Part shown: piece by piece, positions 40,627-63,350 of the stretch
Layout: each line of letters begins with the position of its first letter
Numbering within the stretch: position 1 is the stretch's first letter
Origin: a virus
Taxonomy: Duplodnaviria; Caudoviricetes
Length of the DNA stretch: 64,000 nucleotides
Strand: one strand, 5' to 3'
Virus record (IMG/VR): IMGVR_UViG_2974704384_000001
Span: 1 to 64,000 of that record
Position numbers and translations under genes: made by a program
The notes under the pieces: generated by a model
The model's input: the letters and a program-made list of their open reading frames with translations, nothing else
What the model was told of the DNA's origin: nothing
Database searches by the model: none

Positions 40627-42057
40627 ATGACGACGTTTTTGCAGAGCCTTAACGGCCAGCTAAACACCACCCGCACGGAGAACGGCGATAAGGCGCATAA
40701 GTCGTCGCTTGATCCGGTGGTCGATTACTTCGGTTTGGCGGGCGCTATGCGTGACCGCGCCGAGGCGAGCGCCGATCTGTTTGAGAAGGCGTTCCGCGTT
40801 GACCCGCAGGCTGCCGTCCGGACCCTGTTCTATCTGCGTGACGTGCGCGGGGGCCAGGGCGAGCGTGACGTGTTCCGCGCGGGCCTTAAGCGCCTCTACG
40901 CCATTGACCCGTACACGGCGATGGCCGTTACCGAGCATGTCCCGTTCTACGGGCGCTGGGATGACTTGTTCATCTTCGGGTCGCAGGTTCCGGCTGGTAT
41001 CGCGGCGCTCATTCGTGCGCAGTGGTCCGCTGACGTTGACGCTTACGAGCGTGGCGAGAAGGTCTCACTGCTGGCTAAGTGGCTGCCGTCCGATAAGAGC
41101 CGGTCGAACTTGGAGCTGGCTATCGCGGTCCGCGAAATGCTGGGTCTGACTCAGCGGGAGTACCGCCAGACGCTTAGCGCGCTGCGGGGTCGTATCGAGC
41201 TGCTTGAGCACGCCATGTCCGAGGGCGTGTATAGCAACGTCGACTACAGCAAGCTCCCGGCGCAGGCGCACCGTAAGCACGTTAAGGCGTTCCGGCGCAA
41301 CGACGGTGAGCGGTACCAGGCGTTCCTAGACGCGGTTGACCGTGGCGAGGCCAAGGTGAACACGTCGACCCTGTACCCGTACGAGCTGTACGACATGGTT
41401 AAGCGGGGGGACGCGGCTGCCGCTGACACGCTGTGGAACAACCTGCCGGACTACACGCGGCCCGGCCAGGACGCGATCGTTCTAGCGGACGTTTCAGGCT
41501 CGATGTGGGGTCGTCCTATGTCGGTGTCTGTGTCGCTGGCTTTGTACTTCGCAGAGCGCAACACAGGGCCGTATAAGGGCTATTTCATGACGTTCGCCTC
41601 TACGCCTGAGCTGGTTCAGGTGACCGGTAAGACGTTGGAGCAGAAGCTTCACGCTATCGAGCACTCGACCGGCTGGTGTGGGTCGACGGACTTGGAGGCG
41701 GCGTTTAAGGCGATCCTGCGGGCCGGTAAGCAGTCGGGCACCGTCCCGGCCACGCTCTACGTCGTGTCGGACATGCAGTTCAATCAGGCGCTTAACCACG
41801 CCGACCTGAGCGTGTTTGAGTCGGCCCGGCTGGACTTCCAGCGGGCGGGCCTTGAGCTGCCGCATGTCGTGTTCTGGAACGTGAATGCGCGCCACGATCA
41901 GCTCCCGGCCACGATCCTTGACGGGAACGTGACGCTGGTGTCTGGCTTGGCGGCTACGACGTTCGGCATGGCCGTGGAGGGTAAGACCCCTCGTGAGCTG
42001 GTAAATGACGTGATCAACAGCGAGCGGTACTCGCAGATCAAAGTCTCCGGTTCCTAA
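40627..42057 (+). CDS. rsr: Ro60/Rsr-like TROVE + vWA RNA-binding protein
   Basis: TENGDKAHKSSLDPVVDYF, YLRDVRGGQGERDVFR, YGRWDDL, LAKWLPS, vWA LADVSGSM and VVSDMQF, VFWNVN. Confidence 0.9.
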   Translation: MTTFLQSLNGQLNTTRTENGDKAHKSSLDPVVDYFGLAGAMRDRAEASADLFEKAFRVDPQAAVRTLFYLRDVRGGQGERDVFRAGLKRLYAIDPYTAMAVTEHVPFYGRWDDLFIFGSQVPAGIAALIRAQWSADVDAYERGEKVSLLAKWLPSDKSRSNLELAIAVREMLGLTQREYRQTLSALRGRIELLEHAMSEGVYSNVDYSKLPAQAHRKHVKAFRRNDGERYQAFLDAVDRGEAKVNTSTLYPYELYDMVKRGDAAAADTLWNNLPDYTRPGQDAIVLADVSGSMWGRPMSVSVSLALYFAERNTGPYKGYFMTFASTPELVQVTGKTLEQKLHAIEHSTGWCGSTDLEAAFKAILRAGKQSGTVPATLYVVSDMQFNQALNHADLSVFESARLDFQRAGLELPHVVFWNVNARHDQLPATILDGNVTLVSGLAATTFGMAVEGKTPRELVNDVINSERYSQIKVSGS

Positions 42058-42095
42058 TGTTTCCGATACCGGGTGCCGCCCGGTATCTTTAAACA

Positions 42096-42150
42096 TGTGG
42101 ACGCTAACAGCAACTAACTGTTTGCGGATAACAAGAAAATGCGTCCAGTA
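42096..42150 (+). ncRNA. short Y-RNA-like unit 1
   Basis: TGGACGC/GCGTCCA terminal stem, TAACAGCAA motif; downstream of Ro60. Confidence 0.75.
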
Positions 42151-42156
42151 AAAACG

Positions 42157-42292
42157 TGTGGACTCCTACAGCAATTAAACTGCTTCCACTGGTAAATGGC
42201 GAGGCACAGGTTCGACTCCTGTCATATCGGGGCCGTGAGGTACCCGTTGTAGCTCAGAGGTAGAGCGCGTATGCAAAAATCGGAGTCCAGTA
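42157..42292 (+). ncRNA. yrlA: YrlA-type Y RNA (circularly permuted tRNA mimic)
   Basis: TGGACTCC/GGAGTCCA stem, TACAGCAA, T-arm ACAGG-TTCGACT-CCTGT, GNRA-capped acceptor-like stem, D-arm GCTC-AGAGGTA-GAGC in permuted order. Confidence 0.88.
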
Positions 42293-42299
42293 AAGCGGC

Positions 42300-42364
42300 T
42301 GTGGTCACTAACAGCAATCCTATGAAATCAATTTGCTAAAAAACTGATACAAAATGTGACCAGT
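42300..42364 (+). ncRNA. short Y-RNA-like unit 3
   Basis: TGGTCAC/GTGACCA terminal stem, TAACAGCAA motif. Confidence 0.75.
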
Positions 42365-42378
42365 CCCGCCGCGCATTA

Positions 42379-42413
42379 ACCCGCTACCCGGTCGACGGGG
42401 GCGGGTTTTTTGT
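42379..42413 (+). terminator. intrinsic terminator after the Y RNA array
   Basis: AACCCGC..CCCG/CGGG..GCGGGTT stem followed by TTTTTG. Confidence 0.75.
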
Positions 42414-51963: not shown

Positions 51964-51969
51964 CGGGGA

Positions 51970-51989
51970 GTGTCCGACTTTTCGGACAC
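51970..51989. promoter_or_regulatory. distal copy of operator TGTCCGA-N4-TCGGACA
   Basis: perfect GTGTCCGA-CTTT-TCGGACAC upstream of pnk. Confidence 0.7.
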
Positions 51990-52049
51990 TTTCGCACGTT
52001 TCCGGAGTACATGTGTTGTACTTGAAAGCGAGCAAGAGAGGGGGTCGGA

Positions 52050-52976
52050 ATGACGACCTTATGGGCCATGCGGGGTTATCCCGGCTCAGGTAAATCCACC
52101 AGGGCGCGTGAAATCGCTAACGAGACCGGCGCGGTTGTCGTGTGTCGTGACGATCTGCGCATGATGCTTCACGGTACCTATTTCTCGGGCAAGAAAGAGC
52201 TTGAGGATGAGGTCACGGTAGCGGAGCGGGCGCAGGTTAGCGCGTTCCTTAAGGCCGGTATCTCGGTCGTGGTGGACGCTACGCATTTGGAGCCGTCTTA
52301 TCTGCGTAAGTGGGCGAAGATGGCGAGCATGTACGGCGCGGAGTTCAAGCGCGTCGATATCGAGACGCCCGCTAGCTACTGCATCGTCAATGACTTTAAG
52401 CGCGGTGAGGCCGGAGACCGGACTGTCGGCGCGGAAGTGATTAACCGGATGGCTAAGCGTCACCCGATTAAGAACTGGCCGAATATTCAGGCTCCCCCGA
52501 CGTTCGATCCTAAGCCGGTCGAATGGTTGGAGGGTCTGCCGGAGGCCATCATCGTGGATATCGACGGCACCTTGGCGCACATGACGGGCCGGTCACCTTA
52601 CGACTACACGCAGGTCCATACCGACGTGGTTGACGAGCAGATTCGTTGGCTGGTCGGCCTGGTGGACTACTACGGCGGTCCTAACGGTGTCCACGTGCTG
52701 ATCGTGTCTGGTCGGGACGATTCCTGCCGGGAAGCGACTCAGGAATGGTTGTGGAAGAACGCCATTCCTTACGACGAGCTGCACATGCGGCCTACCGGCG
52801 CTAAGGATGAGCACGGTAACAAGCTGCCGGATTACCTGGTCAAGTACGACCTGTTCGACCAGAACATTCGCGGTAAGTACAACGTGCGGTTTGTGTTGGA
52901 CGACCGGGACCAGGTTGTGAATCTGTGGCGGTCGTTGGGCCTTAAGTGCCTGCAAGTTCAGCCGGGGGACTTCTGA
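52050..52976 (+). CDS. pnk: polynucleotide 5'-kinase / 3'-phosphatase (T4 PseT-like)
   Basis: GYPGSGKST P-loop, CRDDLR, HAD DIDGTLA, DDRDQVV. Confidence 0.92.
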   Translation: MTTLWAMRGYPGSGKSTRAREIANETGAVVVCRDDLRMMLHGTYFSGKKELEDEVTVAERAQVSAFLKAGISVVVDATHLEPSYLRKWAKMASMYGAEFKRVDIETPASYCIVNDFKRGEAGDRTVGAEVINRMAKRHPIKNWPNIQAPPTFDPKPVEWLEGLPEAIIVDIDGTLAHMTGRSPYDYTQVHTDVVDEQIRWLVGLVDYYGGPNGVHVLIVSGRDDSCREATQEWLWKNAIPYDELHMRPTGAKDEHGNKLPDYLVKYDLFDQNIRGKYNVRFVLDDRDQVVNLWRSLGLKCLQVQPGDF

Positions 52977-55896: not shown

Positions 55897-56115
55897 ATGT
55901 CTCACGAGAAAACTTCCGTTGTGCTGCGAAAGATCGACAAGGCCGCGCGAGTGCGAGGGCTGACTTTCGAGATTCGACGGCCCGGCGGTAATCACACCAT
56001 TTACGACTTGGACGGTTTGATGGTCACTATTCCTAATGGCTCTAAGGTCACGCGGGTTGAGGCCACTTACCGGCAATTGCAGGACAAACTTGGAAAGGGC
56101 TGGTGGCGGCAGTGA
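55897..56115 (+). CDS. hicA: HicA-like (dsRBD-fold) protein
   Basis: 72 aa basic, RPGGNHTIY..VTIP motif. Confidence 0.65.
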   Translation: MSHEKTSVVLRKIDKAARVRGLTFEIRRPGGNHTIYDLDGLMVTIPNGSKVTRVEATYRQLQDKLGKGWWRQ

Positions 56116-56179
56116 CGTGGCGCAAGGTTCTTAAGGTAATCGACCGGATTTTGTGGGGAGTGGAAGGGCGGTGGGTTAA

Positions 56180-57460
56180 GTGAGCTTTGACGCTCCGGAG
56201 AACGCTAACTACGCGGCGACAATCGTTAAGTTGCCGCAGGGGCTTCTCCTAGAGGGTCTGGACAACCTGGTCGGCGTGCCGATGTTCGGCTACCAGGCGC
56301 TCACCCAAAAGGAGGGCTACGAGCTGGGCGCGCTGCGGGTGCTGTTCATGGCCGAGACTCAGCTTGATACCGAGTACGCGCGGGAAAACAACCTGTTCCG
56401 TGAGGCCACCCTGAACCGGGACGCGAGCGAGACCGGCTACCTAGAGCCGAATGCCCGCGTTAAGGCGCTCCGGCTGCGTAAGCACCAGTCGGACGCGCTG
56501 CTGATGCCGGTCGAGTCGCTGGCCTATACCGGCTACGACGTGTCGACGCTCAAGCCGGGCGACACGTTCGACAAGCTGAACGGCCACACGATCTGCCGGA
56601 AGTACGTCCCGAAGGGTAAGAAGCAGGCCACGCAGGGCCAGCCCAAGGTGCGTAAGCAGGTTGACGAGAAGCTGTTCCCGAAGCACCTGGATACGGTGCA
56701 TCTGTTCCGGAACCTGCACTACTTCCGCGACCCTCGTCGGATTGTGACCACGCAGAAGTTGCACGGCACGAGTTGGCGCGGCGGCAATATCCCGGTTAAC
56801 CGGACTAAGGGTCGCTTTGAGCGGTTCCTGAACCGGCTGGGCATTGCTACTCCGGATACCGAGTACAAGCACGTGTTCGGCTCGCGGAATGTGGTTAAGG
56901 GCCGGTCGGAGAACAACCACTACTACGCCACTGACCTGTGGGCGCGGTTCGGCCAGAAGCTTGAGGGCAAGATTCCGGAGAACTTCATCATCTATGGCGA
57001 GCTGGTCGGCTGGGTTAGTAAGGATGAGCCGATCCAGAAGGGTTACACCTATAACCTGCCGCCGGGTGAGTGCGAGCTTTACGTCTACCGGGTTGCGACG
57101 GTGAACCCTAAGGGCGTTATCGCGGACCTCTCATGGGAAGGCGTTAAGGACTTCTGCCGGTCACTGGACCTTAAGACCGTGCCGGAGTTCGGTTACAGCA
57201 TTGAGACGGTGACCGACACTGAGGACGAAGAGTCCTTTGTGGAGGCGTACCAGGAAATGTATATGGACCTGCGCTACGCGGACGAATACCCGGCTGGCGG
57301 TTACTTGCCGCTGAGCGACCGTAAGACGGTTGACGAGGGCGTGTGTGTCCGTATCGAGGGCATGGTGCCGCACGTGCTAAAGGCGAAGTCGCCGAAGTTC
57401 CTAGAGCACGAGACTAAGCAGTTGGATAAGGGAGAGGTTGACCTTGAAACGGTGGCGTAA
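56180..57460 (+). CDS. ATP-dependent RNA ligase (Rnl2/DRB0094-like)
   Basis: motif I TQKLHGTS, YGEL, EGVCVR, KAKSPKF. Confidence 0.88.
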   Translation: MSFDAPENANYAATIVKLPQGLLLEGLDNLVGVPMFGYQALTQKEGYELGALRVLFMAETQLDTEYARENNLFREATLNRDASETGYLEPNARVKALRLRKHQSDALLMPVESLAYTGYDVSTLKPGDTFDKLNGHTICRKYVPKGKKQATQGQPKVRKQVDEKLFPKHLDTVHLFRNLHYFRDPRRIVTTQKLHGTSWRGGNIPVNRTKGRFERFLNRLGIATPDTEYKHVFGSRNVVKGRSENNHYYATDLWARFGQKLEGKIPENFIIYGELVGWVSKDEPIQKGYTYNLPPGECELYVYRVATVNPKGVIADLSWEGVKDFCRSLDLKTVPEFGYSIETVTDTEDEESFVEAYQEMYMDLRYADEYPAGGYLPLSDRKTVDEGVCVRIEGMVPHVLKAKSPKFLEHETKQLDKGEVDLETVA

Positions 57461-62779: not shown

Positions 62780-62850
62780 GCTGGATTAGCTTAGTGGTCA
62801 AGCGCTGCCTTCGTAACGCAGATTCACCGGTTCGATTCCGGTATCCAGCT
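62780..62850 (+). tRNA. trnT: tRNA-Thr(CGT)
   Basis: acceptor GCTGGAT/ATCCAGC, D GCTT/AAGC, loop TT-CGT-AA, T-arm ACCGG-TTCGATT-CCGGT; no encoded CCA; C31:C39 mismatch. Confidence 0.88.
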
Positions 62851-62882
62851 CGTAGGAAATACAACTGAATAGGGAGATTGAT

Positions 62883-63023
62883 ATGGCTGAAATTGAGAAA
62901 GACCCGATCAAGGTTGCTAAAGACAAGCTTGACGTTGTGCAGGAGCTTCGGGATCGCAAGGCATGGCCTAAAGAGGAAGTGCCGGAGCAGGCTAAGAAGC
63001 CCGCTAAGGTCGGTAACGCGTAA
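62883..63023 (+). CDS. small hypothetical protein within tRNA cluster
   Basis: GGGAG RBS preceded by CAACTGAATA motif; MAEIEKDPIKVAK... Confidence 0.65.
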   Translation: MAEIEKDPIKVAKDKLDVVQELRDRKAWPKEEVPEQAKKPAKVGNA

Positions 63024-63079
63024 GTTTCAACAGTCATTGCCAAGGCTATGCGTGAGTATCCTCAAACCGGCAATGCAAT

Positions 63080-63153
63080 CTGGCTGTAGCTCAATTTGGT
63101 AGAGCGCTGGCTTTGGGTGCCAGGGGTTGCAGGTTCAAATCCTGCTAGCCAGA
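63080..63153 (+). tRNA. trnP: tRNA-Pro(TGG)
   Basis: acceptor CTGGCTG/TAGCCAG, anticodon arm CTGGC-TTTGGGT-GCCAG, T-arm GCAGG-TTCAAAT-CCTGC; no encoded CCA. Confidence 0.92.
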
Positions 63154-63274
63154 CGATAGGGATTACCCCGCCTCACGGCGTGCGGCCCCTCGGTTAGTCC
63201 ACCGACTGAACGGCAGGAGACAATGTGGAAACGTAGTTAGCAGGTTGGGCGCTGTTTCTCCGTATAGCCCGCAT

Positions 63275-63350
63275 AGCTCGGTAGCTCAATTGGTAGAGCA
63301 GCGGTCTCCAAAGCCGCCGGTTCCCCGTTCGAGTCGGGGCCGGGTTGCCA
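63275..63350 (+). tRNA. trnW: tRNA-Trp(CCA)
   Basis: anticodon arm GCGGT-CTCCAAA-GCCGC, T-arm CCCCG-TTCGAGT-CGGGG, encoded CCA. Confidence 0.92.

Follow-up and report, generated by a model that had tools for sequence, protein, structure and literature searches.

A Ro-like DUF2828 gene and three downstream handle RNA units in a Cluster L mycobacteriophage as a candidate second kind of Ro/Y-RNA system

The nearest described system to the locus considered here is formed by the protein Ro60 (Rsr) and its Y RNAs, as found in Salmonella, in Mycobacterium smegmatis (YrlA and YrlB), in phage Bxz1 (gp220 with two Y RNAs) and in Thermus phage phiLo (Ro60 with Yrl1 and Yrl2) (PMC4201824, PMC12135203, RF02553). 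For this classic, poorly understood RNA-surveillance particle, TROVE is the sole protein family known and the RNA module is of a single kind; its Y RNAs carry a long bulged stem with the Ro-binding motif GNCGAA/CGAA (PMC4201824, PMC12135203). Tethering of PNPase and RNA modification belong to the known Ro60 systems. The locus described here lies in a stretch of 64,000 nucleotides (hereafter, the window), which covers positions 1 to 64,000 of the IMG/VR virus record IMGVR_UViG_2974704384_000001 (76,315 bases in full). In this stretch, a Ro-like gene of the DUF2828 family is followed by three small RNA units that share a constant closing module, the handle. The window matches Cluster L1 mycobacteriophages of the genus Faithunavirus (among them Vetrix, Faith1 and Rumpelstiltskin) at 97-98% identity; these are temperate phages with M. 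smegmatis as the host.

The locus has in common with Ro60/Y-RNA systems a ring-plus-vWA protein (here by predicted fold) that is encoded beside several small RNAs, one of them a permuted tRNA-like RNA and the others short, with a closing stem made from the 5' and 3' ends. Unlike that of Y RNAs, the module of the window units is a 7-bp stem with ACAGCAA and an unpaired G and not a long bulged GNCGAA/CGAA stem. The parts of the locus are as follows.

40627-42057, plus strand: Ro-like gene, 476 aa, DUF2828 and DUF7788 (vWA) in Pfam, predicted Ro60-like fold.
42065-42087 (23 nt), plus strand: hairpin 8 nt past the stop codon, -17.3 kcal/mol, z -4.76, 0 of 200 shuffles as stable.
42098-42148 (51 nt), plus strand: unit 1, short handle RNA, with stem TGGACGC/GCGTCCA, spacer TA, ACAGCAA at 42107-42113, an inner hairpin with a 7-nt loop at 42119-42133 and the trailing G at 42148.
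42159-42290 (132 nt), plus strand: unit 2, long handle RNA, with stem TGGACTC(C)/(G)GAGTCCA, ACAGCAA at 42168-42174 and the trailing G at 42290.
42186-42266, plus strand: body of unit 2, permuted tRNA-like, with a mini-hairpin at 42186-42199, a T arm at 42206-42222, a GUGA-capped acceptor-like stem at 42228-42246 and a D arm at 42252-42266.
42302-42363 (62 nt), plus strand: unit 3, short handle RNA, with stem TGGTCAC/GTGACCA, ACAGCAA at 42311-42317 and the trailing G at 42363.
42295-42299 with 42368-42372, plus strand: 5-bp outer helix around unit 3 in the predicted fold, covarying in phage Lumos.
42378-42412, plus strand: intrinsic-terminator-like hairpin with a six-U run at the end of the array, fold about -21 kcal/mol.

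Unit lengths were counted from the stem through the trailing G. The first unit begins 41 nt beyond the stop codon, on the gene strand. An initial annotation of the window had reported three units with a common 5' motif, and this was confirmed: the pattern TGGNCNCNNACAGCAA was found at 42098, 42159 and 42302 and nowhere else within 64 kb, while shuffled sequences averaged 0.01 matches, and three matches were reached in 0 of 100 shuffles. The three closing stems are perfectly complementary over 7 bp, in the pairings given by that annotation, and each is followed by G; all three units passed the strict grammar scan described below. In an alignment of the intergenic region, four other Cluster L subtypes were found to have three orthologous units in the same order, with stems that differ on both sides. 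Between subclusters, GGACGC is replaced by GGACAC together with GCGTCC by GTGTCC (stem 1), GGACTC by GGACCC together with GAGTCC by GGGTCC (stem 2), and GGTCAC by GGACGG together with GTGACC by CCGTCC (stem 3). The compensatory nature of the terminal stems, which had been noted from the window itself, therefore holds through two-sided changes within Cluster L. In the whole 76-kb phage genome, handle RNAs were found nowhere except next to the Ro-like gene. One additional grammar match (271 nt, one G-U pair) lies at 41237-41507, inside the coding sequence; it was attributed to chance and rejected as an RNA gene.

In each unit, a closing stem of 7 covarying base pairs is followed by 2 nt, by ACAGCAA and by an interior that varies; the 3' strand of the stem and an unpaired G come last. 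When ACAGCAA was looked up beside homologous genes, the same design was found in E. coli phage EC6, Listeria phage List-36 and Bacillus phage Tsamsa, with strongly differing stems. The strict scan required a 7-bp stem, 2 nt, ACAGCAA, 12-260 nt, the complementary strand and G. Across 79 viral loci, the reference phage loci and the window, it gave 172 matches on the gene strand and 0 on the opposite strand, and thirty decoy 7-mers gave 0-14 matches apiece. At 80 independent loci taken from bacterial genome records, 173 matches were on the gene strand and 3 on the opposite strand; with a relaxed core, in which the first base was left free, 74 of these 80 loci were positive. The association with the DUF2828 gene is thus near-obligate, the grammar being present on the gene strand at about 90% of the 159 phage and bacterial loci (345 matches versus 3 on the other strand). 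Among 17 loci without a strict-grammar match, 12 carried the variant UCAGCAA, in all cases on the gene strand. In one clade of DUF2828 loci (L051, L058, L060-L063, L068, L071, L075, L076, L078 and L079), the core is UCAGCAA or CCAGCAA, preceded by stems such as UAGAUGA, and every copy is on the gene strand.

The alignment of 54 dissimilar short units showed double changes at all seven stem pairs (117 cells versus 28 in shuffles), and the stems were 100% paired, as compared with 26-41% once the partner strand had been slid. A covariance model, R2, was built from non-actinobacterial units only. On the window, it matched unit 3 with 37.5 bits (E 2.6e-5) and unit 1 with 34.9 bits (E 8.9e-5) and, with filters off, nothing else in the 64 kb. 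Conservation of the handle extends from actinophages to phages of enterobacteria, Listeria and Bacillus. The RNAs are not covered by any Rfam family, and no description of them was found in literature searches, in which the only near misses were a remark in the PhageMaP preprint (see below) and a single line on TROVE proteins of jumbo phages. In most phages, the DUF2828 gene and its RNAs lie inside tRNA gene islands, where the linkage could be to the island instead of the gene. In phages other than the window phage, units also occur upstream of the gene or, intermingled with tRNA genes, at kilobase distances. In the window phage, the linkage is to the gene and not to tRNA genes, because the three RNAs remain by the gene, 20 kb from the tRNA cluster.

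The gene upstream of the array had been labelled TROVE-vWA, and this label was not upheld. The Pfam scan of the protein gave DUF2828 (PF11443), DUF7788/vWA and weak VWA_2/CoxE matches; TROVE (PF05731) had no match either in the protein or in a six-frame search of the 76-kb phage (0 matches). A sequence search of the PDB with the protein returned nothing relevant. More than 6,000 protein clusters matched the protein, and a protein atlas search returned DUF2828 clusters only. A single-sequence AlphaFold2 model reached a predicted local distance difference test score (pLDDT) of 42 and was unusable; it was replaced by an AlphaFold model made from an alignment of 31 homologues (pLDDT 82). This model predicts an alpha-helical HEAT-type ring followed by a vWA domain. 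In a Foldseek search with it, the first twelve matches were Ro60 chains, and solved Ro60 structures, with 10-18% sequence identity, were the only full-length match. The MIDAS (metal ion-dependent adhesion site) residues, D288-x-S290-x-S292, T354 and D382, were found to be invariant among the 31 homologues. In relatives, the GenBank name of the protein is 'Ro-like RNA binding protein'. Because the full-length model matches Ro60 structures and the MIDAS is invariant, this name is justified at the level of the predicted fold. Unlike Ro60, the protein is outside the TROVE family by sequence, and it is Ro60-like only in its predicted fold. The DUF2828 gene family was found in 704 phage records (Felix O1-like, Listeria, Staphylococcus, Enterococcus, Bacillus, Campylobacter, Vibrio and Aeromonas phages) and in at least 495 bacterial species genomes.

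The bodies enclosed by the handles were then compared with tRNA and with YrlA. In unit 2, the T arm has the loop GGUUCGACUCC, GUGA closes a stem of 7 bp, and the D arm shows the D-loop GG. Its consensus fold in ten mycobacterial relatives has 23 pairs, of which 11 show compensatory changes, and the order of T arm, acceptor-like stem and D arm is that of YrlA. The part of the initial annotation that described the middle unit as a permuted tRNA is therefore supported by covariation, whereas its assignment to YrlA failed: the Rfam model (RF02553) gave 21.6 bits against a cut-off of 69, at 42205-42266 and model positions 30-81, and this was the only unit that it touched. Sub-threshold YrlA matches of similar score were also obtained on the tandem tRNA genes of the window phage (62780-63350; 63-64.5 kb of the phage record G000). 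Since YrlA matches across tRNA genes, the match on unit 2 means little by itself. A long unit at another DUF2828 locus scored 50.3 bits to YrlA over its full length. CGAA is absent from all three handles of the window, the sole UUCGA being the T loop of unit 2, and the YrlA consensus has no ACAGCAA.

The plan of unit 2 is shared by a long unit at another DUF2828 locus (L041:5336-5462), which in layout is a complete circularly permuted tRNA. Its order is the handle, an anticodon-arm-like hairpin with the 7-nt loop UUGAAAC, a short variable region, the T arm, the capped acceptor stem, the D arm and the 3' handle strand. In the family as a whole, the T-loop motif was present in 94 of 154 long units and an inner hairpin in 195 of 221 short units; 85 of these hairpins had 7-nt loops, versus 11 in shuffles. 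A strict anticodon-arm filter was passed by 41 of the 221 short units, mostly with a 5-bp stem and a 7-nt YU-NNN-R-N loop, while shuffles averaged 1.15. CU-NNN-AA loops on 5-bp stems were enriched in short units (for example, L004:3186-3241, L016:7485-7544 and L069:5538-5597), and the commonest 'anticodons' of short units were GUA, GAA, GUU, UCU, CUU and UUU. In the window, the mini-hairpin of unit 2 is weak (3 bp), and ARAGORN called no tRNA at this unit. In sister phages, the mini-hairpin loop of the orthologue is CUGUUAA. The tRNA-Asn annotated in Gardann (L001:4661-4731), and also in Wilder, corresponds to the 5' half of the unit 2 orthologue (L001:4660-4782), its 'anticodon' GTT lying within this loop. 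The loop explains the call, and the tRNA-Asn is probably a mis-annotation.

A direct comparison is offered by the Cluster C phage Bxz1, which shares its host with the window phage. Bxz1 gp220 is a true TROVE/vWA_Ro60 protein (TROVE, 9.4e-50; vWA_Ro60, PF25045, 4.3e-54). Upstream of its gene, one tRNA-like and one short Y RNA were found, the ends of which form long stems with GGCCGA(G/A); Chen et al. 2014 gave this motif as GNCGAA, and for phiLo it was used in the form CGAA. The Bxz1 Y RNAs lack ACAGCAA, and the handle model R1 had no match in 50 kb of Bxz1. There are, hence, two Ro-fold protein families, each with its own closing module on similar bodies. This swap of modules is the best argument, an indirect one, for the handle as a protein-binding site. 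It seems unlikely that a Cluster L phage was among the 22 phages of Chen et al. 2014, because that study began with genes annotated as TROVE.

Taken as a whole, the locus probably encodes a second kind of Ro/Y-RNA particle, made of a DUF2828 protein and several RNAs with a common handle and variable bodies. The DUF2828 member, with its predicted HEAT ring and a vWA domain with intact MIDAS, would be a second Ro-type protein, and the three downstream units would act as its partner RNAs, analogous to Y RNAs. The constant handle would comprise the freely covarying 7-bp stem, 2 nt and ACAGCAA, together with an A-rich run ahead of the 3' strand and the unpaired G. The body would be a whole circularly permuted tRNA-like fold with a capped acceptor stem in unit 2 and a short interior in units 1 and 3. 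The handle would bind the protein, and the bodies would present tRNA-shaped parts to other factors. Such factors could be tRNA-recognising enzymes of the host or the phage, with the bodies as tethers or decoys, and the likely purpose would be to protect phage growth in an RNA or tRNA conflict. The specific mechanism, whether tether or decoy, is rated much lower than the existence of the ribonucleoprotein. The earlier proposal that one Ro-type protein is served by several RNAs thus gains comparative support, while its family labels, TROVE and YrlA, are lost; its comment that no function has been established for an array of this kind is in line with the literature searches.

The units are probably made on one transcript with the gene or reached by read-through past the hairpin at 42065-42087. 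The transcript would stop at the 42378-42412 terminator, and subsequent cleavage would release the separate RNAs. The terminator had been proposed before and was confirmed; in relatives, a G+C-rich hairpin with a T run keeps this position while the sequences differ. The hairpin just past the stop codon is likewise kept in relatives at the matching place with another sequence. It is followed by a short U run and could end or punctuate the mRNA ahead of the RNA array. A promoter of the form TTCCGA/TATCTT, suggested earlier for the array, was rejected because the two hexamers are the feet of this hairpin and are not conserved in Bromden or Lumos, and a promoter scan found none. The outer helix of unit 3 is GCGGT/ACCGC in Lumos in place of GCGGC/GCCGC, a double change, and puts the invariant G into an internal loop. 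Given this helix, the mature RNA of unit 3 may measure about 78 nt instead of 62. The 3' strand of the helix could instead pair into the terminator.

The only functional data found for the protein family concern Escherichia phage Bas63 (JohannRWettstein). Its gp130 is a full-length homologue of the window protein (34% identity, E 3e-90), and handle RNAs lie just downstream of its gene, among tRNA genes. gp130 was found by PhageMaP as a counter to the Ppl defence, and its deletion sensitises Bas63 to Ppl (preprint PMC11482910). The authors of that work remarked on the Ro60-like fold and surmised that Y RNAs might be among the 'tRNAs' nearby (PMC11482910); the preprint did not identify or define the RNAs beside gp130. 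By analogy, this result supports a counter-defence role. Bas63 and the window phage have in common the gp130 homologue and nearby handle RNAs. Unlike the window phage, which is temperate and has its tRNA cluster far from the locus, Bas63 is a virulent E. coli myovirus with the gene in a tRNA island. Two small minus-strand coding sequences of Bas63 (bas63_0137 and bas63_0138; L100:20692-20834) lie over plus-strand handle-RNA matches and are probably spurious open reading frames.

Several observations weigh against a DUF2828 ribonucleoprotein of this kind. gp130 expressed alone from a plasmid rescued T7 on Ppl (PMC11482910); therefore, at least there, the Ppl-countering activity is independent of the phage's own RNAs. 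When the DUF2828 family alignment was compared with Bxz1 gp220 by hhalign, 31 columns around the MIDAS motif aligned and no more. Unit 2 was detected by neither R1 nor R2, owing to its 100-nt insert, and its membership comes from the grammar scan only. Units 1 and 3 of the window fail the strict anticodon-loop filter: unit 1 has a 4-bp stem with the 7-nt loop UGCGGAU, which fails the U33 rule, and unit 3 has no clear inner hairpin. The reading of the bodies as tRNA parts is, consequently, weaker for these two units than for the family. Finally, linkage and covariation show selection for structure near the gene, which falls short of showing a physical complex.

In a rival explanation, the RNAs act alone, for example as tRNA-shaped decoys that soak up host nucleases or tRNA enzymes. 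The handle would in that case serve processing or stability and not protein binding, and the gene would stand beside the RNAs by co-regulation or shared purpose. The tRNA-like bodies, the placement in tRNA islands in most phages and the activity of gp130 without its RNAs in one assay agree with this. However, in the window phage the RNAs stay by the gene and not with the distant tRNA cluster, the handle is conserved across phages of hosts with very different RNases, and where the Ro-fold protein belongs to another family, bodies of this kind carry another module. This explanation is therefore regarded as unlikely. It is very improbable that the locus is a canonical Ro60 (Rsr, TROVE) with YrlA/YrlB RNAs that works like the Rsr-Y RNA-PNPase machines. 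The Ro60-like predicted fold, the YrlA arm order and partial match in unit 2 and the full-length match at another DUF2828 locus would fit it, but its defining features fail: TROVE is absent from the phage, the YrlA score of unit 2 is no better than that on tandem tRNA genes, and neither GNCGAA/CGAA nor a long bulged stem is present, while ACAGCAA is foreign to the YrlA consensus. That the units are cis-acting elements of the mRNA 3' untranslated region (stabilisers, attenuators or a compound terminator) and not separate RNAs fits their position between stop codon and terminator on the same strand and the lack of a convincing promoter of their own, but it is hardly credible given that other phages place units upstream of the gene or kilobases away among tRNA genes, that unit 2 has a full tRNA-like fold (D-loop GG, T-loop UUCGA) and that three bodies share one constant handle.

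Besides YrlA, the only Rfam family that aligned to the units was the Dictyostelium Class I RNA (RF01414). It gave 17.6 bits on unit 2, with the wrong 3' partner, and 16.2 bits on unit 3, against a cut-off of 41.5 (E 2-5 in a 700-nt search); the best score on units of other phages was 23.1 bits, also below the cut-off. Class I RNAs are about 42-65 nt long, and a short stem joins their ends, with a conserved motif (CCUUACAGCAA) next to its 5' strand (PMC7919456). They are eukaryotic genes with their own promoter element, are reported to be unique to dictyostelids, and have an RRM protein as the sole known direct binder (PMC7919456). The phage units have in common with them the ACAGCAA ending and its position, the size of about 60 nt, the closing stem, the variable A/U-rich interior and the UG tail. 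Unlike in Class I RNAs, the register of stem, spacer and tail is off by one nt, and the common part is just a 7-mer. Pfam lists DUF2828 in eukaryotes and viruses. By analogy, phage handle RNAs and dictyostelid Class I RNAs might be one ancient class, with the handle as the binding site of DUF2828 Ro-like proteins; this is quite doubtful. If it were true, Class I RNAs, the function of which has been unexplained for 20 years, would be Y-like RNAs of a second Ro family in phages, giant viruses and eukaryotes.

The genome setting of the locus was also considered. In the annotated relative Gardann, the Ro-like gene is within a rightward early operon, after cro and excise. Farther downstream are genes for an ERF recombinase, nicotinamide adenine dinucleotide (NAD)-salvage enzymes, a polynucleotide kinase and an RNA ligase. 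The last two are a classic tRNA-repair pair (Gardann 51968-52894 and 56038-57336, about 52-57 kb in the window), and together with the two NAD-salvage enzymes they share the rightward operon with the Ro-like gene. The kinase-ligase pair fits the theme of a tRNA conflict, as an association only. The tRNA cluster, with a dozen tRNA genes in Gardann, lies about 20 kb downstream of the Ro-like gene, at 62.8-66 kb in the window phage. The part of it within the window (62780-63350) contains Thr, Pro and Trp tRNAs, and at gathering thresholds Rfam found these three tRNAs and nothing else in the whole window. The G+C content is 47-52% across the array, versus 60-65% in its surroundings. In List-36, the DUF2828 gene has three handle RNAs; just downstream are genes for an RtcB-type 'tRNA splicing ligase' and a phosphohydrolase, and about 1 kb upstream of the DUF2828 gene, a stretch free of annotation (L006:968-1519) contains a match to ROOL RNA (91.5 bits versus a cut-off of 99.1).

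Judged from the sequence evidence, the feature is real, and the system-level idea of the initial annotation is largely right, with strong support from comparison. The locus would be part of a much larger, apparently undescribed sister system of the Ro60/Y-RNA particle, with a different protein family, its own handle and a range of tRNA-shaped bodies. The case of Cluster L is particularly clear-cut: there are three RNAs and one terminator, no tRNA genes adjoin, and a TROVE/YrlA phage on the same host is available for comparison. The counter-defence phenotype of the homologue provides a tractable route in M. smegmatis or E. coli. The questions thereby opened are how Ro-type rings use RNAs in infection, whether phages carry tRNA mimics on a protein scaffold, and how proteins and RNA modules are matched.

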